The position numbers and the translations under genes are program-made. The notes below the pieces were generated by a model. That model was not told where the DNA came from, searched no databases, and saw only the letters and a program-made list of their open reading frames with translations. A DNA stretch of 64,000 nt, from IMG/VR virus record IMGVR_UViG_3300017589_000061, positions 32,001 through 96,000 of that record; one strand, given 5' to 3'. Position 1 is the stretch's first letter. Each line of letters starts with the position of its first letter. Below are positions 476 to 57,788 of this stretch, in pieces. Origin of the DNA: a virus.

Positions 476-520
476 TTTATTTCTCCTTTTTTTAATTTAT
501 TTTTTCGGGCGATAAAACTC

Positions 521-751
521 CTATTCTATTCGGTTATTCAATACTTTTTCCATAGAATTATAATAATTTAATATGTATTCTATTTCTTCATCTGTTAAAC
601 AATCTTCACAAACCCATTCATCGTCCAATATCCAAACAGGTTTACTCCATCCGCATCTCCAACAAGTAGGTTTATAATCCATTTCTTTATTAACATAATC
701 AATACAGCCAACTTTTACATTTTTTCGTTCATTCCCGTATTTGTCTATCAT
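521..751 (-). CDS. Small Zn-finger hypothetical protein
   Basis: CWRC...CEDC; RBS; stop lies inside an 18-bp junction palindrome. Confidence 0.6.
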   Translation of the reverse strand: MIDKYGNERKNVKVGCIDYVNKEMDYKPTCWRCGWSKPVWILDDEWVCEDCLTDEEIEYILNYYNSMEKVLNNRIE

Positions 752-778
752 TTAATTCTCCTTAATAAATCATTCATT

Positions 779-1063
779 TTAAGTCCAATAATCATTTTGT
801 AACCAATTAAATAATTCTTCTCTGCTCATTTTCTTAACTTCTTTTGGCGAAACTAATGCAATTATTTCTTCGTCTTTCATAAATAAAGCCCTGTTTAATA
901 ATAAAATATAAGTATCAAGTTTCTTAGTATAATGCCTAGTGTTATAAAAATTAAAACTATTATCAATTTTACTTTGTACATTCAGTATCAATTTTTGATA
1001 AGGTAATAATTTAATATTATAGCTTTGCTCTATAAAATTATAAAATTCTTCATTATTTTTCAT
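779..1063 (-). CDS. Hypothetical protein
   Basis: 94 aa ORF with RBS; IKLLPYQK motif typical of phage helicase/terminase-like N-termini. Confidence 0.55.
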   Translation of the reverse strand: MKNNEEFYNFIEQSYNIKLLPYQKLILNVQSKIDNSFNFYNTRHYTKKLDTYILLLNRALFMKDEEIIALVSPKEVKKMSREELFNWLQNDYWT

Positions 1064-1156
1064 TTAATCATCATTCTCCTTTTCGCAAACAATCGGTCTT
1101 TTTTCAGAATTTACCCGTTTGTTTAGGGTAATAAAAACATAGTTTTATCTGATATT

Positions 1157-1507: not shown

Positions 1508-1516
1508 TTACTTCTC

Positions 1517-1919: not shown

Positions 1920-2327
1920 TTATAAAATACGATTTTTATTCGGTTCTGCCAACAACATTTTAGGTTTTTCTGTCCACCAAGTATCAGGACATACTTTAAT
2001 ATCTAAATGATAATCAATACAAAAGTATAAATCTTTTGTATATTCAAATGCTTTATTAATTACTCGACCTAAATAATACGCATAAATTTCTTGTTTCTCG
2101 GGTAATTTGCCAAACATTTCTTGATATTTTTCTAATGGTATAATTATTGATATATCAATATCTCTTGGAACTTCCTTATATAATACAGAACCAACTAAAT
2201 ATACGGGATATCCAAAACTATTAGCTACTTTTTGAGCCGATTCTCTTAATTTTAAAAATGCATTCCATTTCATAGGTTGATAATCAAAACCATGTGGTTC
2301 AGCTTTTCCTAAAATTGGTTCATTCAT
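1920..2327 (-). CDS. Minimal Pol-beta-superfamily nucleotidyltransferase
   Basis: VYLVGS...RDID (GS + DxD) and distal LD. Confidence 0.65.
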   Translation of the reverse strand: MNEPILGKAEPHGFDYQPMKWNAFLKLRESAQKVANSFGYPVYLVGSVLYKEVPRDIDISIIIPLEKYQEMFGKLPEKQEIYAYYLGRVINKAFEYTKDLYFCIDYHLDIKVCPDTWWTEKPKMLLAEPNKNRIL

Positions 2328-4470: not shown

Positions 4471-4520
4471 TATATATATTTTCCTTTCATATAAAATTGT
4501 GTTTTTATTGTTTTTTTAAT

Positions 4521-5084
4521 TTAATTTTCACCATAATTTTGTTCTAAATTAGTAATAAATTTAATTAGCTCTTTTTCATTTTCAATTGCGTAGAACTTAT
4601 CTACAACACCAATACCATTCATCCATTCGTCTACCTTTTTAATACATCTATCTGGATTCCAATAATATGTTGGGAAATCTCCATACATTGTTGATTTTGC
4701 AGTTCCATCCAATATACAACTTCTCAAAGGCTCTGTTTTACTTTGTTTTGCTTTTGCAATTCCAGCAAGTCTTAATAATTTTCCCATAGTTTTAGCCCCA
4801 ATAGATATTTGATAACACTGACCTAAATCACTAAGACTTATATATCCATATTTATGTTCTTCTGCTCGGTGTCTTTTAATTTCTAATTCTCTTAAAGTTT
4901 CATTTTCAGATTTCATTATTTCTACTTCTTTTTTAGTTGTTTCTTGTTCCTCTTTTAATTCATTTAAATCTTTTCTAATTAATATGTATTGTTGTTGCAT
5001 AAATTGGTTTATAATTAACTGTAAGTCATCGTAGTCCATATTTTCAATATTAAAATTATTACTTATACTTGTTAATTCGTTCAT
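4521..5084 (-). CDS. Coiled-coil + putative DNA-binding (antirepressor-like) protein
   Basis: N-terminal coiled coil, SLSDLG...IGAKTMGKLL helix-turn-helix-like segment; coupled to the ParB-domain gene. Confidence 0.45.
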   Translation of the reverse strand: MNELTSISNNFNIENMDYDDLQLIINQFMQQQYILIRKDLNELKEEQETTKKEVEIMKSENETLRELEIKRHRAEEHKYGYISLSDLGQCYQISIGAKTMGKLLRLAGIAKAKQSKTEPLRSCILDGTAKSTMYGDFPTYYWNPDRCIKKVDEWMNGIGVVDKFYAIENEKELIKFITNLEQNYGEN

Positions 5085-19963: not shown

Positions 19964-22900
19964 TAAAATTAGAATTTTAAAAGATTATATTAAAAGCATA
20001 CAGAGATATGCAAATATACTCTTTATAAATATATAAGAATGATTATATGTTTATAAAGCTTTTAAAATAAAAATAAAGGAGTAATAAAAATGAATGTAAA
20101 TAAAAATAGCATGATTGAATTATTGGAAAATGAACTGGAGGACTTTAAGAACTTGCAAGAAAAATATAAAAATGATATTGACGAATTCGCTTTTTATAAT
20201 GGATGTGTTAGCACTATAGAATATTTATTAATAAAAATAAAGGAGTAATAAAGCTATGAATGAAAACTTATACAATCATAATCAAGTTATGGATGCTATT
20301 AACAAAATAAAAGATTTTAATGTTACTTGTACAAGAAAAATATATCATAAAACATTATGTTATGACTTTAAAAAAATAATTGAAAATGATTTAATGCCGA
20401 TTAATGACTGGTTATACAATGAGGATATGTTTGCATTTTATAACTATCATGAATTAGTTGAAAAATTATACGATATAACAACAAAAAAAGAAATGGACAC
20501 ATCACTAAATTATTTAAAAGTATCAATAATAAATGATTTATATAAAACATTAGAATTAGCAAGTTAATAAAAATAAAAATAAAAATAAGGAGTAATAAAA
20601 AAATGATAGAAAATGGATTTGTTTATGCAATTGAGCAATACAGTAAAAAGCAAGACAAAATAAAAGCTAAAAATGATAAAAAATCCGATAAAATGCAAAT
20701 CATATATAAAAAATATAATAAGTCACTGGATCAATTAGATAAAAACGAATTATTAAAAAGTGAATATAAAATAGTAATTGATTATATTGAAAATGTATTA
20801 AAATATCCATTACGATGGTATGAAAATTTAATATAAAAATAAATGCAAGGAGTTTATTCCTTGCTATATGGATATAAAAATATTAAAATAGTTTATATCC
20901 TGTATAGCTTGAAATAAGCAAAATAAAAATAATAGGAGTGAAGAAAATGAATAAATTAAGTGAAGCTATTGAGCAAGTAAAACAAGATTGTATTGAAAAT
21001 GGGGAAGCAGAAATAAAAATAAACAATATAACTATATGTGCTGAATGGGTAAGATATACAGAAGATTTAGAAAATTTTGATACAATATTAATATCAATAT
21101 TCGAAAACAATAAACATAAATTCAATTATTTTTTAAACAATGAAATAAAAGTAATAGTATAATAAATATCATGTTTTATGTACTGGGAAAATGTATTATA
21201 ATAAAAATATAAAAATAATAGGAGAATGCAGAAAATGAAAAAATATAAATATCAATTGGATGTAGTGGAAACAATTTATGATGAACATTTTTGTTTGTTA
21301 TACAATATTTATAATGAAGCTGAAGAAAATGAAAATGGATTTAATACAATGTTATTAATTTGTGACATACCAAACAGAAAACAAATACAATTAAATGATA
21401 CAGAAGAAAATAGAAATTATTGCATGAATAGAATTGAAAAATATTTATTATGGGAATAAAACTTATATTTTATAAAAATAAAAATAATATGGAGAATCAA
21501 AATGATAGTTAAAAATAATATAATAAATTTAAATAATATACTGGGAAATTTAAGCTTTGATTGTTATTACAATGTAAATTATAAAAATGGTAAAAGAAAG
21601 TATAAATATAATCAAAGTTATTCATTAAATGATGAAGCATTAAAATGTTTAGAATTGTTAAAAATAGCAAATAAAAACGATATAACAATTGATGAAGAAG
21701 AAGAAATAAAAGCTTTTTTATTAAGATATAAATTACTCAATGAAAGTTATTTACTGGATAATAAAGAATATATAAAATTAAAAGTAAGTTAAATAAAATT
21801 AGCATAGTTAATGCTATGCTACAAGCATATAAAAATATTTATGTGTTTGTAATTTAGCATAAATAAAAATATATTAAAAAGGAGTAACAATGGATAAAAA
21901 ATATAAAAATTACTATGAAAACATGATAAAAGAATACACAGAAAATAATAAAAACGGATGCAATAATGCAAAAATTGAATTTTATAAAAACAAATTAAAA
22001 GAATTAAAGGAAGGATCTGAAACAAATGATAAAAATATATAATAAAAATTGGAATATCAAAGTATTTGCTGAAAATGTATTCATATTGATATTTTGTATA
22101 ATGTTTATATATTGCTTTATTGGATATATAAAAATAATATCAACAAATATAAGATTATATTAAAAAAGTTATTGCTAAAAATATAAAAATATGATATAAT
22201 AAAAGAAAAAATAAAATTTGAGGAGGATTTAAAGATGTATAGTAAAGATCAAATAACCAAAACTTTAAGTTTTATACAAAATTATGCCAACAAAACGAAT
22301 CAGCAAGCAAAATTTAAACAAACAATAAATTTATTAAAAAAGGAGTTAGAAAAATGACATTAAGAGCCGTAAAAAAAGCATTAAAAAAACAAGATTACAA
22401 AAAGCATATATTAAATTATTGGAATGAATTTGATACAATTTATATCGAATTTGATGATGGACAGCAAATAAAATTAGACTTTGACTTAAATATAATTTAA
22501 TTATTTTGTATCGATTATTAATTTAATTATTTAATAATCGATATTAAGCAATTAAAATATAAAATAAAAGGAGCATATAATTATGGATAGCAAAGAACAC
22601 ATAAAAAGATGTGAGGAATTATTAAAAGAAGCAGCAAGCAGAATAAATATGATAATTGAATTAAAAGAATACAAAGAAGGAAGAAAAGTTATAGGAATAG
22701 AAATATTATTAAAGAATGGAAAAGGTTTAATTTATAAAAATTATGACGATGTATCAGATATGTTGGGTTATATACATGGGTACGAATATAATTTATAAAT
22801 CATTCTTTTATATGTTATATATAATAGCTTTAAGGGCATTAAATAAGGTTTAAAGCATTGAAATTATCAAGATTGATGGCAAATAAAAATATAAAAATGT

Positions 22901-25630: not shown

Positions 25631-27599
25631 AAATGATAGCCATATTAAAAAAGGAATCAAGATATAAAAAATATGAAACGGTTGCATTAATAAAAGATGA
25701 TACAAATAATCAATTTATAGTTGCATATCATTTCAAAGAAGATGATAATTTCAAATCTTATGCAGACACACCAAATGATAATATATTTACATTTTTGGAT
25801 GACGAAACACAACTAGGGGCATTAAAACAAGCTATAAATAAATTTGAAACTATAAGAATATAAAAAAATGCATTAAAATTATACAGGGATATAAAATGCA
25901 TATTTTAATGGCTAAAATGTAAAAATAAGTGTTGAAATTTGAACGTTTTAAGAGTATAATAAAATTAAAAATATAAAAATAGGAGGATTTAAAAATGACA
26001 AGATTTTATTTTGATGATGCAGATGATTACAAATTTGGCAACATGGGAAGATTAGAACACGAAGGAAAGATTTATGTATTAGAAGAAGGAGCAGATTTTA
26101 CAAGTAGACAAATAACAGAAAGATCACAGGATTACAATTTCTTTGAATTATCAGCACTTGCACACGATTTAAGTGGAAATAAATATAGTGTTTATTGGGT
26201 ATTCGAAGATGAAGGAAAAGAGTTAGACGAATATGACTACAGCGATATTGACAGAATAATAGAAATATAAAAATTAGAATAGCTTAAATGCTATTCTACC
26301 AGTAAATAAAAATAATTTGTCTATTGGTAAAATAGCATTTATAAAAATAAATTAAAAGGAGGAAATATTATGTTTGCTATTATTAATAAAAATAAACAAT
26401 ATCTAACAAGAAGGGGAATTGATGCAGATTACACTTTTACAGACAATAATAATTTTGCTTATGTGTGGGGAACAATTAATGAAGCTGAAGCAGTAAGAAA
26501 TATATTGACAGATTATCAAGGAGTTAATGATCTTGAAATAGTAGCAATATAACAACAGTACAGAGGTCATAGAATCGATTTTAAGCAACGAAATAAAAAT
26601 AATAATATGAATTTATGGAGGGTTTAAAAATGTTAAATAGAAATGAAATAGGAATTATAGAATTAAGAGACAATAGTTATGTAATCAGAACTGAAAAGGG
26701 TGATTATAGGTTAGACATATACACTGATGGAGTAGTAGTTGAAAAGGGGTATTATGTAGACGCAAGCAGTCATGGCTACATATGGGAAACTAAAGGATAT
26801 TTATTTCATGAAGATGACAGAAAAATTAAAAGAAGAACTAAAAAAATAGCAAATGAAATAATTCAAGAAATAGTTACAATGTTATGTGAAAAAGAATTAT
26901 CTGCATAACCAAATAAAAAGTAGATTTCATCATAATAAAAATAATTATAAATTATATTAAAAAAGAGTTGTATTTTTCAAGAAGTAGTATATAATAGAAT
27001 AAAGAAATTAAAATAAAAATAATAAGGAGAAATAAAATGGAAAAGGTTAAATGTGTAAATTGTGATTGGACAGGGACAAGTGATGAATTGGGGTGGGACA
27101 AAAAATTGAAAATTGAATTATGTCCTAAATGTTTTGGAAATGATGGGTTAGAGTTAATGAAATATGATAATAGAGATGCTGATTGTGAAAATTAGAAATA
27201 AATGAATAGCTTAATGCTATTCTATGAACTAATAAAAATAATTATTAGCTGATAGATTGGCATTAAATAAAAATAAAATAAAAAGGAGAAATAAAAATGA
27301 AAAAAGGGTATGTATTATTAGTAGATGATGAGTGGGAATTTGCAGAATTAACAAAGAAAGATGTTGAAAGAATAAAAGATGATATCAATGGAGAATATGC
27401 TGAACAATATTTAATCAAACTTAATAATGGTGAAACAATTGATGTTGGAATAATTGACGATATAAAAGAAGCTGAAGAATATTATAAAAATAAAATGTAT
27501 GAAGCTATGCAAATTTTAAATGACATAGTATATGATGCTGAAAGAAATAGAATTGAGTGGAACGAAGCATTTAATCAAATGAAATGTGAATTTGTATAA

Positions 27600-32214: not shown

Positions 32215-34223
32215 TAATTGATTAAGTAAAAATAAATTAGTATAATAATAGTAAATAAAAATATTGTTTTAACACAGGAGGATTTATGAATCAAGAATGG
32301 TATAATCCAAATAATGTAACAGCAGATAACTTTAACGAAACTATGAGGGGATATGTAAAATATGCTTTAAGAGATGTAGAAGCAACTTTAAAAAATAAAG
32401 GTTTCAGTAATGAACAGATAGAAGATTTTAAAACTTCCTTTAGGGGTAGTTTAAATTGGTCAATAGATATGATGACAATGGAAGAAGCAAGAAAATATTA
32501 TAACAAATAAAAATAATTCAAAAGGGGGTGGAGTGGTAAATGAAAATTAGTGAAGCTAAAAAACTAAAAATAGGTGATGTTATTTATGAAAAAATACATG
32601 GTTATAAAATGACAATTGAATCTATAAAAGAAAGCAACTCGACTGGGGAAAATAAAATAATAATAGGATGCAGAACTAACGATAGTGGTTTATTATTTAT
32701 ATATGATCACAAAGAAGTTATAATAAAAAATTAGTTTTATTAGAAAGGAAATGTAAAAATGAGCAAAATATATGAATATCAAGGATATAAAATTCAAAAT
32801 TCACCTTATGGAAGTGAAGCGAGATGGTTTATATTTGATGAAAATATGGAACGAATAAAATTCATATCACCATGTAGAACATTAAAAGACGCTAAAAAAG
32901 AAATTGATGATATGATAAAAAGGAAATTTTAAGGGGTGATAAGATGGAACAAAAACATTTTAAAATTAATGTATTTATAGATTCAACAGATAGTAAAATG
33001 AATATTGAAGTGCTTAGAAATAAGTTTACGGAATGGACTAGACAAAATAATTTAACATTTTGTGGTTCATTTGGGGAGATTGAGGATGAACAAGAAAATA
33101 AAAATAATCAAATTTGTTTATATTGTAGCAACTCACTATCAACAGATGATGATAAATTATACTGCGTTGTAAGAGAAGAAATGGTAGAAGAAAATGAAGG
33201 TCAAGAATGTGGATGGCATAATATATAAAAATAAAACGGTCATTTTAAGGTAAAAATATTATGAATTTTAAAGGGAGAAATTTAGTATGGATACGAATAG
33301 TTTAAATAATTTAAAAAAGCGTACAGAAATAGGTTCAGTGTTTTTATCAAAAATTAAAAAATATGATAGGTGGATTGATGAAATTAAAGACCATGAAGTG
33401 ACAAGTGCTTGGATTGGAAGAGAGTTGGTTGATTTCGAAGAAAATTGTGCATCTTGTGGTATACAAGGTATTTGCACAGAAGAGGAAGCTAAAGAATTGT
33501 CTGAATTTATAACAAAATATTTGGTGGACAAGATTGAGAAAAAGAAAATTCAGCTTGAAGAGTCATTTAAAAATCTTTAGTAAATAAAAACAGCATTTTA
33601 ACTATATAAAAATAAGGAGAATGTAAAAATGAAGAATACTGAAGAAGTTTATTTAGTAAGATATGGTAAGACTTGGTTTACAGATGGTGAAATCGAGCAA
33701 CGTTATAAATTTAAAAATATAGATACATTATTAGAGACAATGAAAAGTTGTTTGTCCGATGGTGAATGGGTAGAAGATTTGAATGGTAATAAAATAGATA
33801 TAAAAATAGAATATGCTAAAAGATAAAAGTGATATTTTATCGCACAAATGATAAAAATAAACATTGAAATATCAACGATTATAGGAGGTAAAAATGCAAG
33901 AACTAATTAATTTGGGAGTAGCATATACTGTAGATGGTTACAATGAATCTAAAAAAGAATTAAAAAAGTTTGAGAAAAAATATAATATGAAATCAAAAAT
34001 ATTTTATGACAAAATTAATAGAGATATTTGCTCAATACGTATTCCAACAGAAGATGTTACTGATTGGATATTTAACTGTAATGTTTTTATATCATGTGGT
34101 GGAAAATTATGATGAGGTTATTTTGGAAGTGGTTATATAAATTAGAGTATCAACAAATTAAATTAAAAAAATATGTTGACAAGTTAATATAAAAATAGTA
34201 TAATGTAAAAAAGGAGTTATATT

Positions 34224-36262: not shown

Positions 36263-36269
36263 AAAAGTA

Positions 36270-36298: not shown

Positions 36299-36344
36299 AA
36301 CATATAATAGAAATATAAAAATAAATCCAATAGGAGGAATAAAA

Positions 36345-37298
36345 ATGATAAATTTAGAATTAATTCAAGAAGAGAATATGACATTAATAGAAAATTATAT
36401 AGGTGGAAAAAGAAGATCAAATACTAAAGAGAGTTATAAATCGGATTTAAAGGTTTTTTCCCAAGAAATAAAAAAATCACTATTAAACGTTAACATTGAT
36501 GATATAAATTATTATTTTTATACTGTATTAGCTGATTACTCGCCAAGTAGTAAAAATCGTAAATTATCTAGCATAAGGGATTTTTATGAAGATTTATTAT
36601 ATAGAGATATGTATAATGATGAACATAATAAACCTCGTAGAAATCCAGTTGGTAGAATGGAAGTATTTAAAGTTGATAAAAAAGAAGAAATCAAAGCTTT
36701 AACCAACGAACAAGCTAAACAGTTTTTTAAAGAAATAAAAAGAAATATAAAAATCGCTGAATCGGATTTTCAAAAAAAACTCCATGTTAGAAATTTAGCT
36801 ATGGCTCATATTTTAATCAATACAGGATTAAGAGTAGAAGAATTAACAACATTAAACTTCAATGAACTTCAATTAGAAGATAAATATATAGTATTAACAG
36901 CAAATAAAACTAAAAGCCAAAAATCAAGATATTTAGATTTAGGAGATACTACAATTGAATATATAAATAATTATCTTGAAATTAGAGATGAATTTAAGCC
37001 AACAGAAAAAGACAAGAAGTATATTTTTCTTAGTGGGCGAGGTAAAAAAATGTCAACTAATTCAGTAAATGAATTTTTAAAAAAATATGCCGAAGCTGAA
37101 TCATGCAAAATAGATAATATACATGCACATCTTTTCCGTGATACATTTGGTACGAATTATTATAAAAAGAACAAAGATATCAAGGGTTTGAAAAACAAGC
37201 TTGGTCATTCGAGTATAACTACCACAGAAATCTATATTAATATTATAGATAAAGCAGGTGATGGAACAATGACTAATTTATCAACTGCTAATTATTAA
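36345..37298 (+). CDS. Tyrosine recombinase (Xer-like), catalytic residues intact
   Basis: TGLRVEE, KTKS, HLFR, LGHSSITTTEIY. Confidence 0.93.
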   Translation: MINLELIQEENMTLIENYIGGKRRSNTKESYKSDLKVFSQEIKKSLLNVNIDDINYYFYTVLADYSPSSKNRKLSSIRDFYEDLLYRDMYNDEHNKPRRNPVGRMEVFKVDKKEEIKALTNEQAKQFFKEIKRNIKIAESDFQKKLHVRNLAMAHILINTGLRVEELTTLNFNELQLEDKYIVLTANKTKSQKSRYLDLGDTTIEYINNYLEIRDEFKPTEKDKKYIFLSGRGKKMSTNSVNEFLKKYAEAESCKIDNIHAHLFRDTFGTNYYKKNKDIKGLKNKLGHSSITTTEIYINIIDKAGDGTMTNLSTANY

Positions 37299-37458
37299 AT
37301 CTATAATCGACATAATCCGACAAGACATATTAATTATAATATAAAAATAAAATAAAAAATACATTCTTTCTTGACAAAATACATAATATATAATAGAATA
37401 AAAACAATGGATAACCATGTAGAGTTGTATATTATGTATATAAAAATAGAAAAGGAGA

Positions 37459-38796
37459 ATGTATTTTATGAAAGTTGAACCGAGTATTTTAAAAGATAGA
37501 ATTGACGAGATATTAATAGAATTAAATCAAAATGGTCAAATAAAAAGGTTGTTGGATAGTAATTTACTAGACGAATATATGAATGGTTCGTTGCTAACCA
37601 AAACATTAAATCAAAATCTACCTTTAAACAATAGGTCGATATCAGAATTATATCATATAAGTCGTTTAATTAATACTTTACAACCAAAAATCAAAGTTGA
37701 CGAATATTTTACGGATGATGAAATAACACAAGCCATTAATAATAAAAATAATATAAAAATAGAGAGTAATCCTTTGATAAAACTTAAAGATGTTTTATAT
37801 TCTAAAAACAACAATGAAGAAACTTGGATGACTATGGTTACTTATAAAGAAATTAATGAATGGATGAAAACAGGAAAGCTAGGCTATAACATGGAAACAC
37901 AAAGAGTTGGGAAGATGCGTAAAATTGGTCACAAGATGTTTGTTGTCCCACATATAAATGATAATTCAGTAGAAGATATCAAAGATGCTCTAGTGAAGAA
38001 TGAATTTTATTCTAATATGATTTCATTCAATATTACACCAGATTACAATAAAAAGTTAGAATACAATCCAGTAGAAAAAACTTTAACTATTGACACAGCA
38101 ATCTTTGATGTGGATGTTATTGACGGGTATCATAGATGTTCAGGTATTGTTAAGGCTTTTGAAGTTGATTCAAATTTGGAGGGTGAATTATATTTAAAAG
38201 TTACTAACATGAGTATCGAGAAAGCTCAAAAGTTTATTAGACAAGAATCTAAAAGTAATATTCAAAATCAAGATGCTTTAGAAAAATATAATCCAAAAAA
38301 TAAGATTACAAGATTTGTTAAAAATATAAACGAAATGGGTTCTGAAGAAAGTAATGCGTTATATAGAAAAATAGACATGGGAGTAAATACTCGTAATACT
38401 TGGATAATGTTTGAAACTTTTAAAGAAGGATTAGATTTATCTGGGTTTTTAAGAGAAATTAATTACACTGATGATAGAACAAAACTTAAAAATATGGAAA
38501 TTTTTATTGTAACTTTCTTTGATAATTTTTATAAAATCGCAAATGACTATAAATTAAATGATAAGAAACGAGAAGAATTAACTGATCCTACGTTTATTAA
38601 AGGTTTGATAGTCACTTGTTATAAGTTTTATAAAAGTGGGAAAGGAATTGATATAAATTTGATATCAGCAATGGAAGTGTTTATAAAAAAATTCAAAACA
38701 ACTACAACAAAATATACCTACGAAAAAACTCTAAAAACTAAAGAAGAAACGAAATATATCAATAAGTTTAAGAGGTTATTGGAGGTGGAAAACTAA
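37459..38796 (+). CDS. DGQHR/DndB-like (ParB-fold) protein
   Basis: YNMETQR, VIDGYHR; position matches SPbeta yopQ. Confidence 0.7.
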   Translation: MYFMKVEPSILKDRIDEILIELNQNGQIKRLLDSNLLDEYMNGSLLTKTLNQNLPLNNRSISELYHISRLINTLQPKIKVDEYFTDDEITQAINNKNNIKIESNPLIKLKDVLYSKNNNEETWMTMVTYKEINEWMKTGKLGYNMETQRVGKMRKIGHKMFVVPHINDNSVEDIKDALVKNEFYSNMISFNITPDYNKKLEYNPVEKTLTIDTAIFDVDVIDGYHRCSGIVKAFEVDSNLEGELYLKVTNMSIEKAQKFIRQESKSNIQNQDALEKYNPKNKITRFVKNINEMGSEESNALYRKIDMGVNTRNTWIMFETFKEGLDLSGFLREINYTDDRTKLKNMEIFIVTFFDNFYKIANDYKLNDKKREELTDPTFIKGLIVTCYKFYKSGKGIDINLISAMEVFIKKFKTTTTKYTYEKTLKTKEETKYINKFKRLLEVEN

Positions 38797-39774: not shown

Positions 39775-39882
39775 CCTTGACCTATACATATAAAATTATA
39801 TTAAAAATAAATAAAATAGTTGTTGACAAATTGTGGAATAAGGAATATACTATTATTATCAAAGAGAAAAGGAGAAATTAAT

Positions 39883-40134: not shown

Positions 40135-43100
40135 GAGGTGACATGATGAAAATGTGCATAATGTGTTTGGAAAAATTAGCTGAAGATTATTCAGATTATT
40201 GTAAAGAGTGTGAAGAAATATTAGAAGAAGAAATACATAAGGAAATAAAAAGTTAATTTTAATAGAAAGGAAAATCAAATGAATAAAGATATAGAAAAGA
40301 ATATGAATAATACAATAAAACGTATTGATGAGAGTATAGATTATTACGATAAAAAATGGGATATTAAATTTAATAAAATGGGGAAAACTTTAAAAGATAC
40401 ATCTAAAATAATAAAAAGTATTAATATAATTTTAATTATAACATTTGTAATAATTATAGGATTAATGATTTTTTATAATAAAAAATTACTTTTATTATAA
40501 AGATTAAATTAAAAAGGAGAATGAATATGTTGATTAGGAGTCAAGATAAAGAAATAATTATCAACTTAGATAGAATAACAGCTATTGCTAAAAGTAAAGA
40601 TAATAATATTATTGTAACCGAAAGTCCGATGGCAAGATTAAATGAAATGTTGTCAATTGGGAAATATTCTACTAAAGAAAAAGCATTAAAGGTTTTAGAT
40701 ATGATAGACGAATTTCACTATCAGTTTATTAATTCACAAAATCCTAAAAGCACAACGGTGACATATACAGTATTTCAAATGCCACAAGAAAATCAAGTGT
40801 AATAAAAGATATTATTTATCGGAAAGGGGATTAAGATGAAAGTATTAAAAAGAATATGGAATTTTGATAAACAAGATATGAAACATATGAAATGGTTGTT
40901 TAAGCAGTTATTTAAACATTTTTTCATAGGAGTATTCATTGGGAACATGGACGAATTTGTTGATACTTGGTTTTGGATCAAAATACATTGCTGTTATGAC
41001 AGTAAGAAAATAAATTAAAGTAGGTGCAAAAGTGGAAGATTTGTTAAGAAGAACAATTAAACAATCAGTTCCGACACATGCCGTTAAATTTATTATTGCA
41101 AATATAACATGTTTCTTTTTAGTAATAATCGGAACATTTTTATTAGTAGTAAGAGAGTACAATATAAACAATGTTATCCGAGCAGATTTCTTTGCTACTG
41201 GATTAATGATGGCTTTAGGAAACATGGTGTTAATAATCACAGGGATAGCGAGTATTCGTGATTATAAAAAGACTATATTAGGATGTTTAGATGATATTAA
41301 AGAAGCTGATGAATACTGTGAAAATGTGATTAAAGAAACAGAAAATAAGAGGGGTTAAAATGGATTACGCAGATAAGTTGGATTTTATGGATGATGATTG
41401 TGATATACAAGGCTTTCCAATTGAAGATGAAGGAGAGAAAATGAATAGTACAGAAAAAGCAAATTTATATAATGAAACTTTAAAAAAGATAGAGGATTTG
41501 TTAATAGAAACAGATTCTAAATTAGGTGATATGCAATCGTTAGAAATATTATCTTCTATAGTTAGAGATTATGATTTAATAACAGCAAGTAATTTAATTA
41601 AAATGAATTGTGATCCATACCTTACTAAATCAATATTAGAGGATAGAATGTATGGCGAAGGAAATGAAGAAGCAGGATTCATATCATTAACATCTTTACT
41701 TGAATCAGTTGAAGAAATAATAAATTGTGATGATAGTGATATGGGTGAAGTTAAATTTCAATATCTTGTCCGACCTGAAACATCAGAAGAAGCAGAAGAA
41801 AATGAGCATGATGAATCTGATGCTACATGGTATATAAAAGATGAAAATATTGATATTGAAAAGTTAAATATTCAATTTGAATTTGAATAAAATTAGGAAT
41901 TTATAAGGAGAGATAAAATGAAAGAAGTTAAATTATATGTTGAAGATAATGGTTATAGAGATTACGAAGATACGGATACATTACTAGACCAATTAAAAAA
42001 GGAATATGATAAACCAAGACCTGTAGTTTTACAATTATATGATAATGAGGGACAAATAATTATTGGTAGATGCACTTGTGTAATTGGAACATTAAAAAAT
42101 GGTTCTTTTCTTTTAACTGGCAATATTGATGATATTCTCTGTGAAAAGTAATAAAACTAGGGTTTTATGAGAATTATAACGTTGAAATTTCAACGATTTA
42201 AGGAGAGTGAAAATGGATATATTAGAAAGTAAAGACGTAATTACAAAAAAAGAACATAATTGTTTTGGTTGTGGGAGAAAATTCCCAAAAGGATCAAAGT
42301 TAAATTTCACAAAATCAGTCGATGGTGGAGAATTTGCAAGTGCTTATTGGTGTAAAACTTGTCAAGAATATTGGGAAAAAAATATGTCATATGACGATGA
42401 AATAGGCTATGGGGAATTAAAATCAGAAGATTTTAGAGTATGGGAAATAATCAGAAAGGAAGTTGAAGTAAATGAATAAATTCGAACACTTCACAGATGA
42501 TGAATTATACATATTGAAACGTCAAGCAATAGAATCATCTTGGGAAATTTGTGGATGTGGAGCATATAACGAATTTGAAGTTAGATTACATGAAAAGTTA
42601 ATGAATGAAATTGCAGATGAAGTTAAAACGAGAGGGTGTTAGAATGTTAAAAGTAAAAGATTCAGTAGGTGGAATTTACAAGAGAACTAAAGATGGGAAA
42701 GAAGAATGGTATCTACTTGAAGATACAATTAACAAAATTGTTGAAAATGGGAAAGGTAGAAAATATTATACAAAGTCAAAATTTGTTCCTTTAGACGCAG
42801 ATGATATTGACGATAATACAGAAATTTTGGAAAATGCCAAAGGATATATTATTACAAGAGAAGTATTCGGGTTGAATGATATTACTCGACCTAAAGCGGA
42901 AAATTGGGTTGAATGGGCGAATGAAAATATGGATAAAGCAGTAAGTGTTTTTGAATAGGGTGATAAATTCGTTGTTTTATTAGAAGCATGATGTTGAAAT
43001 TACAACGTTTATGGGAGGTGAAAAAATGAAAAATAAAGATAATACAATATATAAAGTATACATAATTGAAAACGTCACAATTTTAATTTTAGCAGGGTTT

Positions 43101-45193
43101 TTATGTTATATATTCAAGAGCTTATGGGGATTGTTACCCTTAGTATGTTTAAATACAGGTGTTAAAACAAGAAGTAATGATGATGAAGAATAGAAGAAGT
43201 AATTTAAACGAAACAAGGCTAAATTTAAAAATGACCGCATTTGATTTAAAAATATGAATAATAAAAGGGGAGTAAAATGGATAACCAATTTACAAATAGT
43301 ATAACAAAAAAATTAATAGAAATACACAAAGAAGAGCAGAGGGATTTTCTTACTGGCGAAAAAGATTTATTAGTTCCAAAAAATGAATTTATAGATAAGA
43401 TAATGAAATATGAAAATGGAGAAAGTTATCTTGAAGTAATTTCTATGGAAAATTCTATTTTTGAAAGACAAGGGTTGGTTCATGGTTTTTCAGATGAAAA
43501 TTGGGATACATATTTTAAAATACCTAATTGGGATAATTTTATGAGTGGAGTATATGCATTTTATATAGCTTGTTATGCTGATGAAGATGAAGAAGAATAA
43601 ATTAAAATAAAAGGTGTGTTTTAATATAAAAGGAGATTAAATTATGTTGACAGTTAGGGAAGCATCAATTATATCAGCATATACAGGGGTTTTAATTGGC
43701 GAATTTAGTGACATGTGTAAATATATCGAAGAGAAGTTAGATAGACCAGTTTTTACTCATGAATTAGGAAATAGTGACGTGTGGGAAGAATTAAAAGCAG
43801 TTTGTAAGGAAGATTTTATAAATATTCCAATAGAAAAATAGATAAATTAAAAGGGGTGTAAAAATGCTTTTAGATAAAGAAGATAGATTTTTATTAGTTG
43901 ATGAAGATGGTAATGTAGTTATTGTAACAGAAATAGAAACGAATCATTTATTGACAATGAATTCATCTATGCCAGTAAGAGGTAAATTAATAAGATTAGA
44001 TTATGAAGATTTAAATGTTGATAGTATTGAAGATGTAGAAGTACAATTAAGTTTTTATATAGAAAATATTGAAAATATTACAAAAAGATAAAAGAACTCT
44101 TTTATTACTTATAGTGAAGATTTAGATATTGAAATTTCAATAAAAAAGGAGAATTAAATGATAATAGAAAATGCTTTAATAATGAATATTATGAAAACTG
44201 AAAATGGGCTAGATATAACAAAAGAAATGGTTGAAAATTCCTTAGAGAGTTTTATAAATGCTCCGATAGTTTATAATGAAATGGGTACGTTTAAAGACTA
44301 TAAGGATGAGTCATTTAAAGATTATTTTAAAAAGAATATAGTTATTGGTATGGTATTAAAAAATGTAAATATTGCAAATGATGAAGTTAGAGCTAATATT
44401 TTAATATATGACGGATGTATAAATCTTTGGGCAGATAAATATGATAATTGGTGCATTAAATTAGCTGAAGATAAGAAAAGTTTTACCGTTGATTCAATAG
44501 AAGTATTTTAAATAGAAAGTATATTTTATGGGAGACAAAAATATGGATATGTATACTAAATGTAATAATTGTAAAAAAGAATTAAATATTGAAGATGCAA
44601 AAAAGCAAATTGTAAATAATGGGATTTGGATGAATGAAAAGATAATTTGTAAAGATTGTTATGAAAAAGAAATAAAAAAGTTAATACAACAGTTATGTAA
44701 AACCTATAATTTAAAATATGAAAACTGTTTTACTGAAATAAAAAATAATCATTTGCTGATAAAAACAGAATTAGGTGAAATTAACAAAGAATATTACGGT
44801 ACAGATACTTATTATTTTGTAATAGACACTTATAATAATATTAGATGGATACAAAAAGATGATATAGAATTTAATTTACATAATGAAAATAATAATGCTA
44901 TTGAAAGAATGATTGAATTAATAAAATTTATGTGTGATAAATATTGAAATTTCAACGTTTAAAATTGTAAAGATTATGATAAAATGAGATTTTTATCGGG
45001 AGGGCGAAAATCATGAGTGATACTCATCTTAATGGTAAATATATTAAAAGTATTGATAGAATTGATGACAAAACAATTCACATCAATCTAAAAAATGGAA
45101 AAATTGTAGTGATAAGAGCTACAATGTGTGATTATGATGATTGTGAATTGATTATTAGAAGATAAAATTCAGACTTTATCAGGAGGTTAAAAA

Positions 45194-46246: not shown

Positions 46247-46559
46247 TTAAAATCGAAGTTTTAATAGGAGGGAATATGAAAGAATTATTTATGCAAATTG
46301 AAATTTATGAAGCTAAATTAAATAGAACAACTTGTTTTGATAACATTGTAAATATGAAGGTTTTAAATAACAATTTAATTATAAAAGATGAAAATGGCTG
46401 GTCAACAAATATTGAAATTAATGAAGGTATCGAAGTTAAAGTTAATTTTTATAATTTAGATGATGATGAATTTGAAATTTAATTAATAGTAGAATTATAT
46501 TAAAAAAGAATTGACAATTCACAAAACAAAGAATATAATATTACAAAAGGGGTGAAGTA

Positions 46560-47042: not shown

Positions 47043-47363
47043 GGTTATATTTATAAAAGGAGTGAAAAGTGAAATAATGACTAGACATAAGTATATGAAG
47101 GTAATAAAACATATTAAAAGATTATTTTGTTATCACAAATGGGATATAGTAGGAAATCCTTATTTGTGGGATTATGGTAAAACTAAAAGAGCAAGTGTCA
47201 GATGTATAAAGTGCAATAAATTATCAGATATTGACATCTTTGATACGCCTAAAAGAAGATTATATTAAAAAGATAAAATAACGGTTTTATCCGAATTATA
47301 GGTCGAAAAAACGTTGAAATTTCAATGGTTATGGAATGTATAAAATTTAAAAAGGAGTAATAA

Positions 47364-48056: not shown

Positions 48057-48079
48057 AAATATAAATAAAAGGATAAAAT

Positions 48080-50150: not shown

Positions 50151-50624
50151 TTGTTAAACGATTCATTGTTTAGTAGTAAAGATCAAGCGTGGGAAACTCC
50201 ACAAGATTTATTTGATAAATTAAATTCAGTTTTTAATTTTAAAATAGATGTTTGTGCAGTTCCAGAAACAGCAAAATGTAATACATATTTTACACCAGAA
50301 ATAGATGGGTTAAAACAAGAATGGAAAGGTAATTGTTGGATGAATCCACCATATGGTAGAGAACAAATTAAATGGATTGAGAAAGCAAGTAATGAAAATG
50401 CAACAACAGTTTGTTTAATTCCTGCAAGACCTGATACAAAAGTATGGCATGAAACAATATTTAAAAAAGCCAAAGCTGTTTGTTTTATAAAAGGAAGATT
50501 AAAATTTGGTGGCAGTAAAGATTCAGCACCATTTCCAAGTGCCTTAATAGTATTCGGAAATGAATTGACAGATGATCAGAGAAAAGTATTAAATGAGTTG
50601 GGTAAATTATACATAGAAAATTAA
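50151..50624 (+). CDS. Phage Dam-family N6-adenine methyltransferase
   Basis: WETPQDLF, DVCA, WMNPPYG, LIPARPDT, GRLKF, APFPS. Confidence 0.9.
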   Translation: MLNDSLFSSKDQAWETPQDLFDKLNSVFNFKIDVCAVPETAKCNTYFTPEIDGLKQEWKGNCWMNPPYGREQIKWIEKASNENATTVCLIPARPDTKVWHETIFKKAKAVCFIKGRLKFGGSKDSAPFPSALIVFGNELTDDQRKVLNELGKLYIEN

Positions 50625-50705
50625 ATTAAAATGATAAAACCAAGATTTTATTATACAAAATCAAAAATTGAGCGTTGAAATTGCAACGAATTTAGGAGGT
50701 AAGAA

Positions 50706-52858: not shown

Positions 52859-52947
52859 GTTAAAAATGTAAAGTACATAAAATTTACATTTTATCGTACA
52901 AAACAAGAAAATAAGTGTTGAAATTTCAACAAAAAAGGAGTAGTAAT

Positions 52948-53742
52948 TTGGCAAAGATAGAAAATGATAAATATTATACATCAAAAGAATTAGCTAAATA
53001 CTGTATAGATAAAACATATAAAATTATTGGTTATGACAATATTTCAGAGGTGATTGAACCATCGGCAGGAAGTGGAAATTTTAGTTTACAGATATCTACT
53101 ATTTGTTGGGCGTATGATATTGAACCTGAACACGAAACTATTATAAAAGCTGATTTTCTTGAAAAAGAATTTAATTATTTAGATGGTAGGTTGATAATAG
53201 GTAATCCCCCATATGGTAGATGTTTAAATTTAGCACAGAAATTTTTTAAAAAATCAACTAAATTAGGTGATTATATAGCTTTTATATTACCGATAAGTCA
53301 ACTCAATAATACACAAAGTTTTTATGAGTTTGATTTAATACATAGTGAAGATTTAGGTAAACAAACTTATACTGATAGAGAATTACATTGTTGCTTTAAT
53401 ATTTATCAAAGACCTGAAAGTGGAGAATTGAATAAAAGACCAATAAATAAATTAAAAGACATTTCAATCATAAGACAAGATAGTAAAGGTTATAAAGAAA
53501 AAGATTTTGACATTAGAATGTGTTATTGGGGTGATGGTACAGCAGGAAAAATACTCAACAATGACGAAAATTATTCTGCCGAATATAAGATACAAATACA
53601 TAATGAGCAGTTAAAAGATAGGATAATTGAAGTCTTAACTAATTTTAATTGGAAAGAATACTTGAATTGTATAGCAATGAGAAAAATTCAACAATTTCAT
53701 ATTATTGATGTATTAAAGAAACAAATATCAGAAATAAATTAA
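52948..53742 (+). CDS. Gamma-class amino DNA methyltransferase
   Basis: DKYYT, IEPSAGSG, IGNPPYG; AAGGAG RBS before TTG 52948. Confidence 0.85.
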   Translation: MAKIENDKYYTSKELAKYCIDKTYKIIGYDNISEVIEPSAGSGNFSLQISTICWAYDIEPEHETIIKADFLEKEFNYLDGRLIIGNPPYGRCLNLAQKFFKKSTKLGDYIAFILPISQLNNTQSFYEFDLIHSEDLGKQTYTDRELHCCFNIYQRPESGELNKRPINKLKDISIIRQDSKGYKEKDFDIRMCYWGDGTAGKILNNDENYSAEYKIQIHNEQLKDRIIEVLTNFNWKEYLNCIAMRKIQQFHIIDVLKKQISEIN

Positions 53743-55633
53743 ATTAAAAAGGCAATAAAAACTATGTTTTATGAGAGGTGTTAAAATGAGTAAGATATTA
53801 AAATGGTTTAGTAGCTTAAAAGATTGGCAAGTATTAGTTATTGGTTTGACGTTACTTATAGTTGGTATAACGACAAGTCCATTTGAAGCAGGTGTTTTTA
53901 TGACAATTGAGGAATATATAGAATATACAAAACTTTCAAAAATAGAACAGCAAATCGACTATATAATTAGAGTTATTAAAGGAATTACCTTATTGATGAC
54001 AGCGTTAATGGGTGGTGGATTTATAGGCGAATGGGTGCATAGAAAAACCAAATAAATGTTGCATTTTAAGTCCCAAAAGGAGAATAGTATGTTTAAATAT
54101 TTAAACAAAAAACTTAAATCAATTAAAAAAACAATTATATTTTATATCACTTATTATGATAATCAGCCAAGTCTTTTAGAAAAAGCAAATTTTAAGATAA
54201 ATCAAGAAAAGCCTGATTTTGCTAATCACGAAGGAGACGATTACGAGAGATAAAGTTTATAAATGGTATGAAATTCTTTATATTTAAAGAGTTTTGAGTA
54301 AATTTAAAGGGGTGATAAAATGAATTTAGTTAAAATGGCAAAAGAATTGTTGGATATACATGAAGAAATCAAATATTATACAGGATTTGGTGAATTTAAA
54401 GAAGATGAGTATGATATTTACATATTTGAACAAATGTGGGGAAATACTTCAGGTGGATTTCAAGGTGTAGGCGGATCAGCTATGACAAATCAAAATACAT
54501 ATGTGTTAATACCTAAGTGTGAAGGAAAGTGTTTTGTTTTCTTTGGCGGAATATTTGCTTATAAAGTTCCATATAGTCAGAAATTTATAAAAGATGTAAT
54601 TGACCATAACGTAAAAGGTATACATGGTATGGGAGAGTATTTAAAAAATAACTAAGAAAGGAAAATATTATGGTAGACATTAAGTTTTGTAAAAAAAGTG
54701 GTTGTGACTATTACTTTAACAAAATGGATGACTGCATGTACGGAGACAAAAATTTACCAAAGGATTATTTAAGAATATGTAAAACATCAAGGTACCAAGT
54801 TTATTTAATTGGGAAAGAAAATAAAAAGGAAGGTGAGAAAATGAATCAAACAGTTACAATTACAGGTGAACCAGAACCCTTTGGAAAGTTAATCGTTGAT
54901 AAAGAAGTTTTAATTTATGCTTTATTATGGGCAACAAATATGTCAAATAAATCACCATATAAAATTATAGAAAACATTAGATTAAATTTCGACAAATTAT
55001 CTACTTATGACTTAGAATTTATATCAAAAGAAATTATAGGTAGTGGAAGTTGGAATTTAGAATATGATGGTCAACAGTGGAAAGGATTCTTAGAAGATTT
55101 AAAAAAGGAAATAGAAGGGAGAGAAGATGACTGTTAGAGAATTAATTGAAAAACTTCAGGAATTAGATCAAGACACCGATATATTTATTGAAGGATATGA
55201 GTTTGGTAAAATATCAACATATGATGACATAGATGAAGAAAACTTTTACGTAATAGAAGGTAAAACGTGGAAGTATTAAAAGAGGAATTTTATTAGGTAA
55301 AACGTAAAATTAAGTGTTGGAATTTCAACGTTTAACAAATATAAAAGAAAGGAACATTAAATGAATATTGAAGATTTAAAATTTAAAGAAAGACCTATTG
55401 ATAAATTACATAAAGAATTATTTGAATCATTGCCAGAGTGTAAATATTATAATTTAGGTATAAGTGTGGCGTTATCTTCTTTATATACGATAATTAAAGA
55501 AAGTAAATTAAATTTTAGTAGAGAAGAGTTATTGGAAATTATTAAAATTACAGCAGATCAAAACAAGGATATTCATTATTATTTTTATAACTTAATGGAT
55601 AAATAAATTATTTAAAATTAAATTAAAAAACAC

Positions 55634-55662
55634 TTGACAATGAATTTTGGCTATGTTATACT
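55634..55662 (+). promoter_or_regulatory. SigA promoter
   Basis: TTGACA-17-TATACT; similar promoters at 24414, 37371, 46511. Confidence 0.75.
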
Positions 55663-57788
55663 ATTAAGGTAAGGAGGTGGCAAAGTGCCAATATTAAGAA
55701 ATTGGAAGGTATTAGAATATTATTCAAGCGTACATTTAGAGAAGGTTCAATATTTGACAGGGCAAGTTTTTAATGACACAAGATTCGCTGATGGAACAGA
55801 AATAAGAACTTCAATATTAAAAGAATTTGGTGGTGGATTTGCAAAGACACAAAATACTACATACATATTAGAATAAGATTATATTAAAAAGGAGAATAAG
55901 ATGTTTAATTTAGAGGAATTACAATGTATTAAAGAAAAATTTTCAAATGAAAATCTAGTCGATGACACAAATAATTATAACAAAACTATTGCAAAAAAAT
56001 GCCAAGTATTGATAAACAAGGCTCAAAATTGCAAAGAAAAGCTTTATTCATTTTATTGGGACTGTGGTAGACAAGGAGAAGTAGAAGGATTATTTAAGGC
56101 AACAGAAGAAGAAATAAATAGAGCCATAGGGCAACAAGTATATTTTGGAGAGATACTAGGCAAACATAGTGAAGTATATGGGACATTAGATGAAGGTGAT
56201 ATTACTTTGGTGTCAGATGATTCCTTGATAGTTTCAAATTCTGCCGAAAGTGGATATAACCCTTTAAACTATGTTAGATTTATATGTTCGGTTTGTGGAG
56301 AAAGACTTAGTATAGAAGAATTTGATGACTTAGAAAATATGATTTGTGATTATTGTGCTAAAGAACAGGATCAATAAAAAAGATATAAAATAAAACTTTT
56401 ATATGAAAGGAGTAAAATTTTGGATAACGCAAAAAAGTTACAACAATCCATAAAAAGAAAGACTGTGCTTCGAGAAACATTACATAATACTACAGGATAT
56501 AAAGTTAAAGAATGTGAAGTAGAGTATATTGGTAAAGGATGGTATAGTTTTAATTTGGACGGAAACGAGTTTGAATGTAAGTGGAGTAGTTCACCAATTC
56601 TAAAAGATAGAAATAAGGCAATGTTTTGGTTTAGAAATAATTCTATATTGGAACAAGCAGGATATTGTTATGAGTATGGAATAGATGTAGGTAGAGTAAA
56701 ATATGCAAGTTCATTATATTTTGGATTTGGACACAGTATTATAAACTGTTTATGGGTATTGGGAGAAGTTTTAGAAAAGAAACCAAGTTATGATTATCGG
56801 TAGTTAAAATTTTAGTTTTATAAGAAGGGAGTAAATTATGGGAATGTATACAGGAATAAGATTTAAAGGATATGTAAAACCAGAATTTAGAGAAGATTTT
56901 GGAAATATTGCATTAAATGGTGAGTGGAAAAGTAGTAATGACAACACTATACGATCTTTTAGTAGTTTTTATAGGGCTTCATTTATACCATGTGGAAGTT
57001 TGTCTTATATGCCCGATGAATGGGAATCACACGACGATAAATATAAGGAATATTCGGGTGAATGGTTTGATTCTGCAAAAGATACAGATGGATTTAATAG
57101 AACATGGAATAAAGAAACAGGATATTGGACATTTCAATGCAGTTTAAAAAATTATGAATCTGAAATTGAAGCATGGTTTGATATATTACCACACTTCATA
57201 GAAAAAATTGAACATTTAGAATATTTTTATGAAGAATGGGATTATAGTTGTAGATATGACCTGATTGATAGTGAAATAAAGTGCATTGATACAGAATTTA
57301 TTAAATATGATAGGTAAATAGGGTAATAAAACTAAGTTTTTATAAGAAAGGAGAATGAGATGAATAAAGATTTGTTTTTAAAAATTGTAGCAAGTATGGG
57401 TGAAGATGATTTAGAAGATTTTTCTTATAAACATGATGGTAAAATTTATGGATTTTATGGAGTAGATGAAGATAATTGGGAAGATGAAGGTAAATATCAA
57501 TACAAAACTGAATCGGGTGTATTGATTGAAATGGATGAAAAGTATCATGAGATTCAACGTTTTGATTATGGCGTTTCTCGTAGCGTTCAAAGAAGTGGAT
57601 CATATTTTTCAGACTATTATTATGACTATGAACCATACGATGCTTATGAAATTGTGGAAGAATTAATTCCAGAAGTTATTATTCCAGCACATACAGAAAA
57701 TAAATGGAAAATATTAAACAACTAAAACACACATTTTATTAAGTGTTTTATATAGATTAAAAATTAAATTAAAAAGAGAGGTAAAAGA

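Follow-up and report, generated by a model that had tools for sequence, protein, structure and literature searches.

A repeated 18-bp palindrome with an individual 6-bp centre as a possible registered joint for gene replacement between related phages

We analysed a 64,000-nucleotide stretch of phage DNA (the window), bases 32001-96000 of the 137,366-base virus record IMGVR_UViG_3300017589_000061 (genome G000), which is punctuated by many copies of an 18-bp palindrome, WTAAAA-N6-TTTTAW (W, A or T), here called the A site. The A site marks gene ends throughout a clade of related phages. No two sites of one genome have the same variable centre, yet corresponding positions in different genomes share it, even where the adjoining genes are unrelated. 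Because the sites combine common arms with a unique, positionally conserved 6-bp centre, and because gene replacement is bounded by them, we propose from sequence comparisons, with a probability of roughly one half, that A sites may be registered recombination joints for gene replacement between related phages. The origin of single-gene mosaicism in phages is an old open question, for which random illegitimate joins followed by selection, short conserved linkers and dedicated machinery have been the candidate answers.

The record has a GC content of ~25%, and its two ends overlap by 99 bases; the genome is therefore circular or terminally redundant. Our own gene-calling heuristic found 228 genes in it. 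Exact copies of the palindrome ATAAAA-N6-TTTTAT number 17 in the window; 100 dinucleotide shuffles averaged 0.47 copies and never exceeded 3 (0/100 reached 17). An earlier reading of the letters by a model (the sequence-only reading) had listed 49 sites, and the palindrome it described is real: 16 of its coordinates are exact copies, 27 have one mismatch and five have two (765, 18277, 45871, 46247 and 54052). Its site at 51623 has no match within two mismatches, and an exact copy at 40478 is absent from its list. Over the whole genome, exact copies in intergenic DNA number 16 where 0.3 are expected, and copies with at most one mismatch number 39 (4.3-5.6 expected). Genic DNA holds five exact copies against 0.5-0.7 expected, and its 13 copies with at most one mismatch are at the chance level of 13-15. 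Split in this way, the excess over shuffled sequence is confined to intergenic DNA, in keeping with the earlier placing of the sites at gene junctions. The core of the motif, TAAAA-N6-TTTTA, is present in 60 copies in the genome (46 intergenic and 14 genic), and a backwards version of the motif, which served as the control for all core-site counts, in four. The sites that are simple in structure are listed here in window coordinates; A sites and composites carry no strand.

512..57739, A-site array (WTAAAA-N6-TTTTAW), taken from the list of motif matches
One-mismatch A sites at 512, 2701, 3956, 18065, 19963, 21162, 24361, 25891, 26913, 30052, 30470, 31759, 32255 and 33231
One-mismatch A sites, continued, at 33584, 40245, 40802, 41887, 42963, 43607, 44512, 45162, 48298, 49774, 55276, 56804 and 57722
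Look-alikes with a ribosome-binding site (RBS) in the spacer at 23232 and 28352
1131..1148, exact A site within a minus-strand gene block
1922..1939, exact A site
4491..4508, exact A site
21456..21473, exact A site whose left arm holds a stop codon
23442..23459, exact A site whose left arm holds a stop codon
32723..32740, exact A site
53755..53772, exact A site
56385..56402, exact A site

The conserved part of the site comprises six positions per arm, the outermost being only W, and the spacer is exactly 6 bp in every copy counted, so that the site shows the inverted arms around a 6-8-bp spacer typical of tyrosine-recombinase core sites. Outside the 18 bp we found no conservation except a weak C after the right arm. 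If transcribed, the arms would form a hairpin of six A-U pairs and a six-base loop with a mean energy of +0.65 kcal/mol, which is unstable, and the arms show no preference for compensated over uncompensated changes. Substitutions in the arms are roughly mirror-symmetric after allowing for a strand bias of G over C; the excess of changes to G over C is seen in both arms and tracks strand composition. A symmetric sequence that is unable to pair alone points to a dimeric protein reading duplex DNA. Inspection by eye of eight composites (A sites joined to a second palindrome, described below) gave no consistent pattern of pairing between the N6 and the spacer downstream of the site, and no A site has the GC-containing hairpin and U run of an intrinsic terminator.

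Relatives were retrieved by scanning for a composite of the A site and the second palindrome, that is, with a pattern containing the motif itself. The scan yielded several viral contigs of 64-135 kb, a fragmented phage in a metagenome-assembled genome (MAG) labelled Clostridium sp., and, from a second Firmicutes MAG (G007), a contig of 29 kb. Five viral records have 23-73% protein identity to the present genome, and they contain 13-39 core sites against 3-7 in the backwards control, a 4-15-fold enrichment. In the host-like genome G007 outside its phage contig there are 25 copies against 20 in the control. Since the relatives are enriched and the host-like genome is not, we assign the motif to a deep phage clade and presume that a phage protein reads it; a host regulon is not supported by the same count. 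A megablast search of window positions 30000-50000 against phage and plasmid collections returned no match.

The spacers are informative. We tested their uniqueness on 265 sites from seven genomes, in both orientations, against 2000 column shuffles. Identical spacers within a genome were never found, where 6.7 pairs were expected, and 0/2000 shuffles gave zero; the sequence-only reading had found every spacer it read to be different, and this difference proves to be non-random. Spacer pairs with one mismatch are also depleted within genomes (59 against 99 +/- 10.6). Among hexamers taken from eight control positions next to these sites, identical pairs numbered 10-38 where 9-16 were expected, and because these controls are not depleted, the shuffle is not biased towards too many collisions. 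Between genomes the deviation runs the other way, with 107 pairs of identical spacers where shuffles gave 44.8 +/- 6.8 (64 at most). Two relatives, G001 and G002, have 13 spacers in common, all in the same orientation and 12/13 collinear, and at the nine of these sites that were examined, blastp found no match between flanking genes in 17 of 18 comparisons. Common spacers are likewise collinear between G001 and G007 (8/8) and between the present genome and two contigs of the MAG G006, C596 (6/6) and C231 (4/4). Judged from these sequences, spacers behave as if their identity matters for recombination. The earlier suggestion that unlike spacers are tolerated, as by Tn916-type integrases, finds no echo here; the data point the opposite way, to spacer identity choosing the partner.

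The sites are placed with respect to genes rather than to promoters. Among 157 junction sites in six genomes, 93 begin within 10 nt after a stop codon, and in 40 the TAA of that stop occupies site positions 2-4, bearing out the earlier observation of stop codons inside the arm. In gaps of at least 70 nt, 32 of 77 sites start between -4 and +10 of the upstream stop, against 9.8 expected under uniform placement, and 13 of 77 end near the next start codon, against 15 expected; the impression is of units attached one behind another at the site. A sites often abut the next Shine-Dalgarno sequence, and many leave no room for a promoter. Between window positions 39000 and 58900 there are only three strong sigma-A-type promoters and no canonical plus-strand terminator, and A sites therefore punctuate long operons, where they bound single accessory genes, as had been proposed.

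39823..39851, plus strand, sigma-A-type promoter matching at 11/12 positions, heading an operon punctuated by A sites
46511..46539, plus strand, sigma-A-type promoter, 12/12
55634..55662, plus strand, sigma-A-type promoter, 11/12

None of the strong sigma-A-type promoter regions carries an A site. We considered and discarded a promoter function for the A site or the second palindrome, as no sigma-A -35/-10 arrangement fits by eye; a search of the genome for a Sigma70_r2 domain found none and gave only a weak r4-like match (14.7 bits). A sites are spread over >100 kb, in gene blocks of both strands. The par/rep module, the mazF block and the replication operon have no clean intergenic copies, as the sequence-only reading had stated; the one-mismatch matches there are genic or doubtful (12242, 36504, 61785 and 65555) or resemble a ribosome-binding site (58747).

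Homology between relatives breaks preferentially at A sites. Using high-scoring segment pairs (HSPs) of at least 85% identity, with pairs counted in both directions and accessory and other regions pooled, breaks occurred at 36/40 site-bearing junctions and at 82/128 junctions without a site. Broken and continuous junctions number 36 and 4 with a site, 52 and 31 in long gaps without one, and 30 and 15 in short gaps without one. At the protein level, where both neighbours have homologues, adjacency is kept across a site in 2/6 cases, compared with 52/74 and 78/86. Since 64% of the site-less junctions also break, the sites are preferred joints and not the only ones. The 29-kb contig of G007 is a patchwork of segments 93-98% identical to G001 or G002, and for HSPs with 93% identity or more, eight of the 12 ends fall within 30 nt of an A site. 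The switch positions are at the outer edge of the site in three cases, inside an arm in two and at an RBS or ATG 11-17 nt away in two (J2 and J6); one more segment begins ~8 nt before an A site, and the four ends away from A sites fall at a stop-plus-RBS motif or a start codon. The sequence-only reading had proposed a test for breakpoints inside the N6, and none was found there among the switch points read base by base.

Individual replacements illustrate the same pattern. The gene after the composite at 47273 is a 230-amino-acid (aa) methylase here, a 359-aa gene in L007 and a ~90-aa gene in C231, and between the sites at 57326 and 57722 C596 carries a different gene, the flank downstream of 57722 being 100% identical. 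Thus one part of the mobile-cassette idea held, in that relatives differ by whole-gene replacements limited at the sites, and its integron form was not borne out (see below). The sites concerned are the following.

47273..47326, composite: A site (spacer TAACGG), 22 bp, B box; island kept in L007 and in G006 contigs C231 and C389
48298..48315, A site, spacer GGAATC, collinear with G006 contig C231
49774..49791, A site, spacer CATTGC, common to L007, C231, C389 and C526
56804..56821, A site, spacer TTTTAG; in G006 contig C596 a tnpB unit has its right end at the homologous site
57326..57343, exact A site, spacer CTAAGT, which recurs in C596 with both flanks differing
57722..57739, A site, spacer CACACA; C596 has another gene upstream and a 100% identical flank downstream

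In the G006 MAG, among the 50 exact sites listed, nine start 1-39 nt from the first base of their contig, six of them at 35-39 nt. Many G006 contigs begin or end ~36 nt outside an A site, so that ~54-56 nt separate the contig end from the inner edge of the site. Such contig ends are as expected from assembly forks at site edges; the NODE_ contig names suggest SPAdes as the assembler, for which the largest k would probably be 55. A contig-end figure of 16/40 for G006 is biased, as 9/20 contigs had been chosen for a site near their start, and is not relied on.

A second palindrome, the B box (GTTGAAATTTCAAC), adjoins A sites in either order. In 29 A-B pairs from six genomes the distance between the two is 22 bp in 19 pairs, 12 bp in five and another value in five, and this step of one helical turn is meaningful on DNA and not on RNA. 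The remaining composites in the window are:

25891..25944, one-mismatch A site, 22 bp, B box; the homologous site in G006 contig C60 holds a tnpB unit
33823..33876, A site, 22 bp, B-like box
42151..42194, A site, 12 bp, B box GTTGAAATTTCAAC
42963..43006, one-mismatch A site, 12 bp, B box
44088..44141, A site, 22 bp, B-like box
44943..44996, reverse order: B box, 22 bp, A site
50634..50687, A site (spacer CCAAGA), 22 bp, B box
52877..52930, A site, 22 bp, B box
55276..55329, one-mismatch A site, 22 bp, B box

If A sites are registered joints, their common 6-bp arms would presumably be bound on duplex DNA by a dimeric phage protein, and a B box 12 or 22 bp away would be the target of an accessory or regulatory protein on the same helical face. 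As each site in a genome has its own 6-bp spacer, exchange between two related phage genomes that meet would take place between sites with the same spacer, i.e. at corresponding junctions, and the gene or genes between neighbouring sites would be replaced as a unit while gene order and operon stay intact. With no spacer in common within a genome, its own sites would not recombine with one another and delete genes. That recombination acts at the sites, as opposed to the sites merely surviving it, is something that we infer, as is the enzyme. The candidates for it and their neighbours are:

36345..37298, plus strand, Xer-type tyrosine recombinase of 317 aa in the yopP position, candidate enzyme
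37459..38796, plus strand, yopQ-like protein of 445 aa
38797..39774, plus strand, MrpR/YopR-like degenerate recombinase of 325 aa, candidate DNA-binding regulator
58763..59428, plus strand, ERF-family single-strand annealing protein of 221 aa, candidate for short-homology exchange

The genome encodes two intact Xer-type recombinases, the one at 36345-37298 and one of 332 aa at genome positions 125312-126310. Both contain a Phage_integrase domain (E 9e-32 and 5e-37), and the catalytic positions R, HxxR, H and Y are present in the alignment of both. Their scores with the integron-integrase model TIGR02249 are 57.2 bits (317 aa) and 87.6 bits (332 aa), against a cut-off of 265, and the match is limited to ~60 C-terminal residues. 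The 325-aa protein lacks the box I Arg and both catalytic His, and the three genes at 36345-39774 form a module with the order and sizes of yopP-yopQ-yopR in SPbeta-like phages. Homologues of the 325-aa protein were found in two of six relatives searched (G001 and G005), among records that are incomplete. In a search for a cognate protein that co-occurs with the sites, only a MazF/PemK-like endoribonuclease (window 35137-35547; 31-43% identity) had homologues in all five viral relatives, which is probably uninformative.

Within the proposal of registered joints, one of the Xer-type recombinases would be our tentative first choice of enzyme. Spacer identity selects the recombination partner among spacer variants of lox and FRT, and a recombinase would explain the identical palindromic arms at all sites; the shortness of the arms argues against it. 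A less probable second choice is short-homology annealing by the phage Erf on 18 identical bases, and we place site-specific action somewhat ahead of annealing. The fullest form of the idea is that large (~120-140 kb) phages or phage-plasmids of Clostridium-like hosts possess a natural cassette-exchange system of 50-60 sites, in which the 6-bp overlap serves as a positional address, a tyrosine recombinase swaps genes slot by slot between co-infecting relatives and the B box binds an accessory factor. Taken as a whole, this picture seems to us rather unlikely.

Several observations weigh against registered joints. Spacers are not conserved between deeply diverged genomes: the present genome and G001 have eight in common against ~4 expected, in non-collinear order, and it and G004 have three against ~3. 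Conservation is limited to the 18 bp, in which each arm measures only 6 bp, whereas characterised tyrosine-recombinase core sites have arms of ~9-13 bp; specific arms of that length are absent here. Switch points never lie inside the N6, which fits exchange between identical sites and cannot prove it. As site-less junctions also break, and some switches occur at an RBS or ATG, the single-gene mosaicism of the clade needs no sites. The sites occupy accessory regions, which turn over faster anyway, and the B box with its helical phasing fits a regulatory complex equally well. Finally, because relatives were found through the motif, their possession of it is ascertained; the spacer statistics are not.

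The alternative that we take most seriously, although we doubt it, is that the A site is an operator or boundary element of a dimeric phage DNA-binding regulator, for example the 325-aa dead recombinase at 38797-39774, which would have kept a recombinase-type geometry without cutting. The sites would then punctuate operons, e.g. as roadblocks or insulators in a plasmid-prophage state, and exchange would survive there as a by-product, the sites being all that is conserved at junctions which otherwise differ, as with the PeSL elements compared below. The information content of the palindrome, which does not fold, is typical of an operator, the site is phased with a second palindrome, and it is absent from modules expected to be active in lysogeny. 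Its lack of enrichment in host-like G007 implies a phage-encoded reader, for which the yopP-yopQ-yopR-like module, with a 325-aa member missing its catalytic residues, offers a candidate: MrpR of SPbeta is reported to be a recombinase-fold repressor acting at a repeated 15-bp element at ten promoters (PMC10516654). The spacer of an operator should nevertheless drift freely, and it is over-dispersed within genomes; nor would one expect spacers to be identical and collinear between genomes with unrelated flanking genes, the strong sigma-A-type promoter regions to carry no site, or sites in long gaps to be anchored to stop codons. The homologues of the 325-aa protein in only two of six relatives also speak against it, with the caveat on incomplete records given above. 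Much less probable is an intercistronic signal on polycistronic RNA, acting in processing, stability or translation. Such a signal would account for sites inside operons with few promoters and no canonical terminators, for their anchoring to stop codons and frequent abutment on the next Shine-Dalgarno sequence, and the MazF-type endoribonuclease, the sole protein with homologues in all five relatives, would speak for it. It is opposed by arms that cannot pair stably and show no preference for compensated changes, and that differ from each other in single-stranded RNA, where a homodimer would have no symmetric target; the 10-bp step in B-box spacing, in either order, would be meaningless in RNA, and the spacer statistics would go unexplained.

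We regard as slightly more improbable still that the A site is the target or footprint of another DNA enzyme, either a nuclease with a bipartite site that provokes repair from a co-infecting relative or the target of an IS605-type tnpB unit. A bipartite N6 palindrome resembles the recognition sites of type I and type IIB enzymes, breaks cluster at both edges of the site, and the right end of the tnpB unit abuts the arm-spacer boundary of four different sites. However, the genome yielded no such nuclease and contains no Y1 transposase, copies of the tnpB unit lack a consistent left junction, and neither the uniqueness of spacers nor their collinear conservation would be predicted. A true integron, with IntI, attI, folded single-stranded attC sites and excised one-gene circles that integrate at a primary site, is very improbable, even though stop codons are embedded in the sites, open reading frames (ORFs) without a recognisable sigma-A-type promoter are co-oriented over long stretches and tyrosine recombinases are present. 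The recombinases fall far below the integrase cut-off and match its model over ~60 C-terminal residues, the 18-bp sites have neither a foldable stem nor an R/L box structure, and a group IIC intron in the genome is located behind a GC-rich terminator of the usual kind. The integron family membership implied by the sequence-only reading thus fails for want of an IntI-type integrase, of attC-like long imperfect palindromes and of a foldable hairpin. Nor is the array one-directional beside an integrase, as sites also lie in minus-strand blocks and several sigma-A-type promoters are internal to it.

Some further features of the genome adjoin these subjects. An IS605-type tnpB gene (OrfB_IS605 and a Cas12f-like TNB domain) is present at genome positions 99929-101330 and in G006 contigs C60, C442, C596 and C151; in four copies the hairpin at the right end leads into ATAAAT, beyond which stand the spacer and right arm of a resident A site that differs from copy to copy; the left junctions vary. 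The group II (IIC) intron, with a 469-aa ORF, lies on the minus strand at genome positions 135434-137361, across the record ends, and has Rfam D1-D4 and domain V matches. Rfam searches at gathering thresholds gave no match in the window and only this intron in the rest of the genome. Its 5' exon, read across the 99-bp terminal overlap, ends in a GC-rich terminator, GGGCAGTT-loop-AACTGCCC-TTTTA, and downstream of the intron there is a B box and then the head of a minus-strand operon (genome 119-135 kb).

Two DNA methyltransferase genes adjoin A sites: that at window 47364-48056 (N6_N4_Mtase) directly follows an A-B composite, and a Dam-like gene at 50151-50624 has an A site on one side and an A-B composite on the other. 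L007 and C231 carry the Dam-like gene too, at 88-90% identity and in another setting. A protein with a ParB/Noc-like N-terminal domain (window 5084-6127, minus strand), a ParA-type ATPase (7070-7918) and an FtsK/SpoIIIE-like ATPase (13178-14764, minus strand) together suggest a plasmid-like maintenance module. Other intergenic repeats are also present. Of 63 genomic copies of the motif TAAAAATAA, about 60 lie in a block of small genes at window 20000-40000 (genome 52000-72000), usually 8-20 nt before a Shine-Dalgarno sequence and often twice per gap, flanking a GC-containing hairpin. Gaps of ~100 nt within window 19600-30300 (e.g. upstream of 21890, 26370 and 27297) hold recurring hairpin modules, ..aatagc..gctatt.. 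followed by TAAAAATA. A stereotyped junction, AATTAAATTAAAAAGGAG, made up of a stop codon, an A-rich run and a Shine-Dalgarno sequence, is very common genome-wide, especially in structural blocks (examples are upstream of window 6127, 50706 and 53786), and several mosaic breaks away from A sites fall there.

Among known systems, the A-site array resembles integron cassette arrays in that ORFs without sigma-A promoters stand in an operon, bounded by short sites that can include the stop codon, and turn over gene by gene. An integron attC, however, is an imperfect palindrome of tens of bases with paired core boxes that folds from single-stranded DNA, and the present genome has no IntI, no long folded imperfect palindrome and no single primary site; exchange appears as registered replacement between matching sites and not as capture of circles at attI. 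A sites can also be compared with lox, FRT and dif. Spacer variants of these sites exist, and cassette exchange between two sites with unlike spacers is used in genetic engineering. A sites likewise have inverted arms and a 6-bp spacer, their spacer statistics fit a choice of partner by identity, and Xer-type recombinases are encoded; they differ in having arms of 6 bp and not ~11-13 bp and in numbering some 50-60 per genome, and recombination at them is proposed here from comparison of genomes. We know of no natural array of recombinase sites with unlike spacers, and literature searches on the sequence strings, on integron-like phage cassettes and on linkers or hotspots found neither such an array nor a description of the A site.

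In SPbeta, a repeated 15-bp element, SPBRE, is found at about ten promoters and is reported to be bound by MrpR (YopR) (PMC10516654; bioRxiv 10.1101/2022.10.21.513154). The present genome resembles SPbeta in the order and sizes of yopP-yopQ-yopR (317/445/325 aa here, 360/460/325 aa there), in a 325-aa recombinase-fold protein without the catalytic set and in a short repeated element dispersed over the phage genome, and A sites differ from SPBRE in numbering ~60, avoiding strong promoters and sitting at gene ends. An SPBRE-like motif that we derived from two SPbetaL1 intergenic regions, whose identity as SPBRE is unconfirmed, resembles neither the A site nor the B box.

The PeSL of T4-type phages have been described as mobile regulatory cassettes, short motifs numbering ~50 per genome that lie between stop codon and Shine-Dalgarno sequence. 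They are concentrated upstream of orphan genes in hyperplastic regions, where the insertions, deletions and replacements that distinguish relatives end at them; a PeSL consists of a sigma-70 promoter and a stable GC-rich stem-loop terminator and recombines by homology (PMC2839356; PMC4122927). A sites are alike in number (~50 per genome), in their position between stop codon and Shine-Dalgarno sequence, in occupying plastic regions and in marking the limits of insertions and deletions. They are unlike PeSL in having no promoter and no stable stem-loop terminator, and in their strict arm-N6-arm form with spacers that are unique within a genome and conserved in position between genomes. If annealing does the work at A sites, an unrelated phage group would be using the PeSL principle in a much tighter form. 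If a recombinase reads them, they would constitute a natural addressable gene-replacement system and a ready-made set of mutually exclusive sites for engineering. In either case, the spacer statistics represent a new type of evidence, one that can equally be sought in other repeated palindromes.

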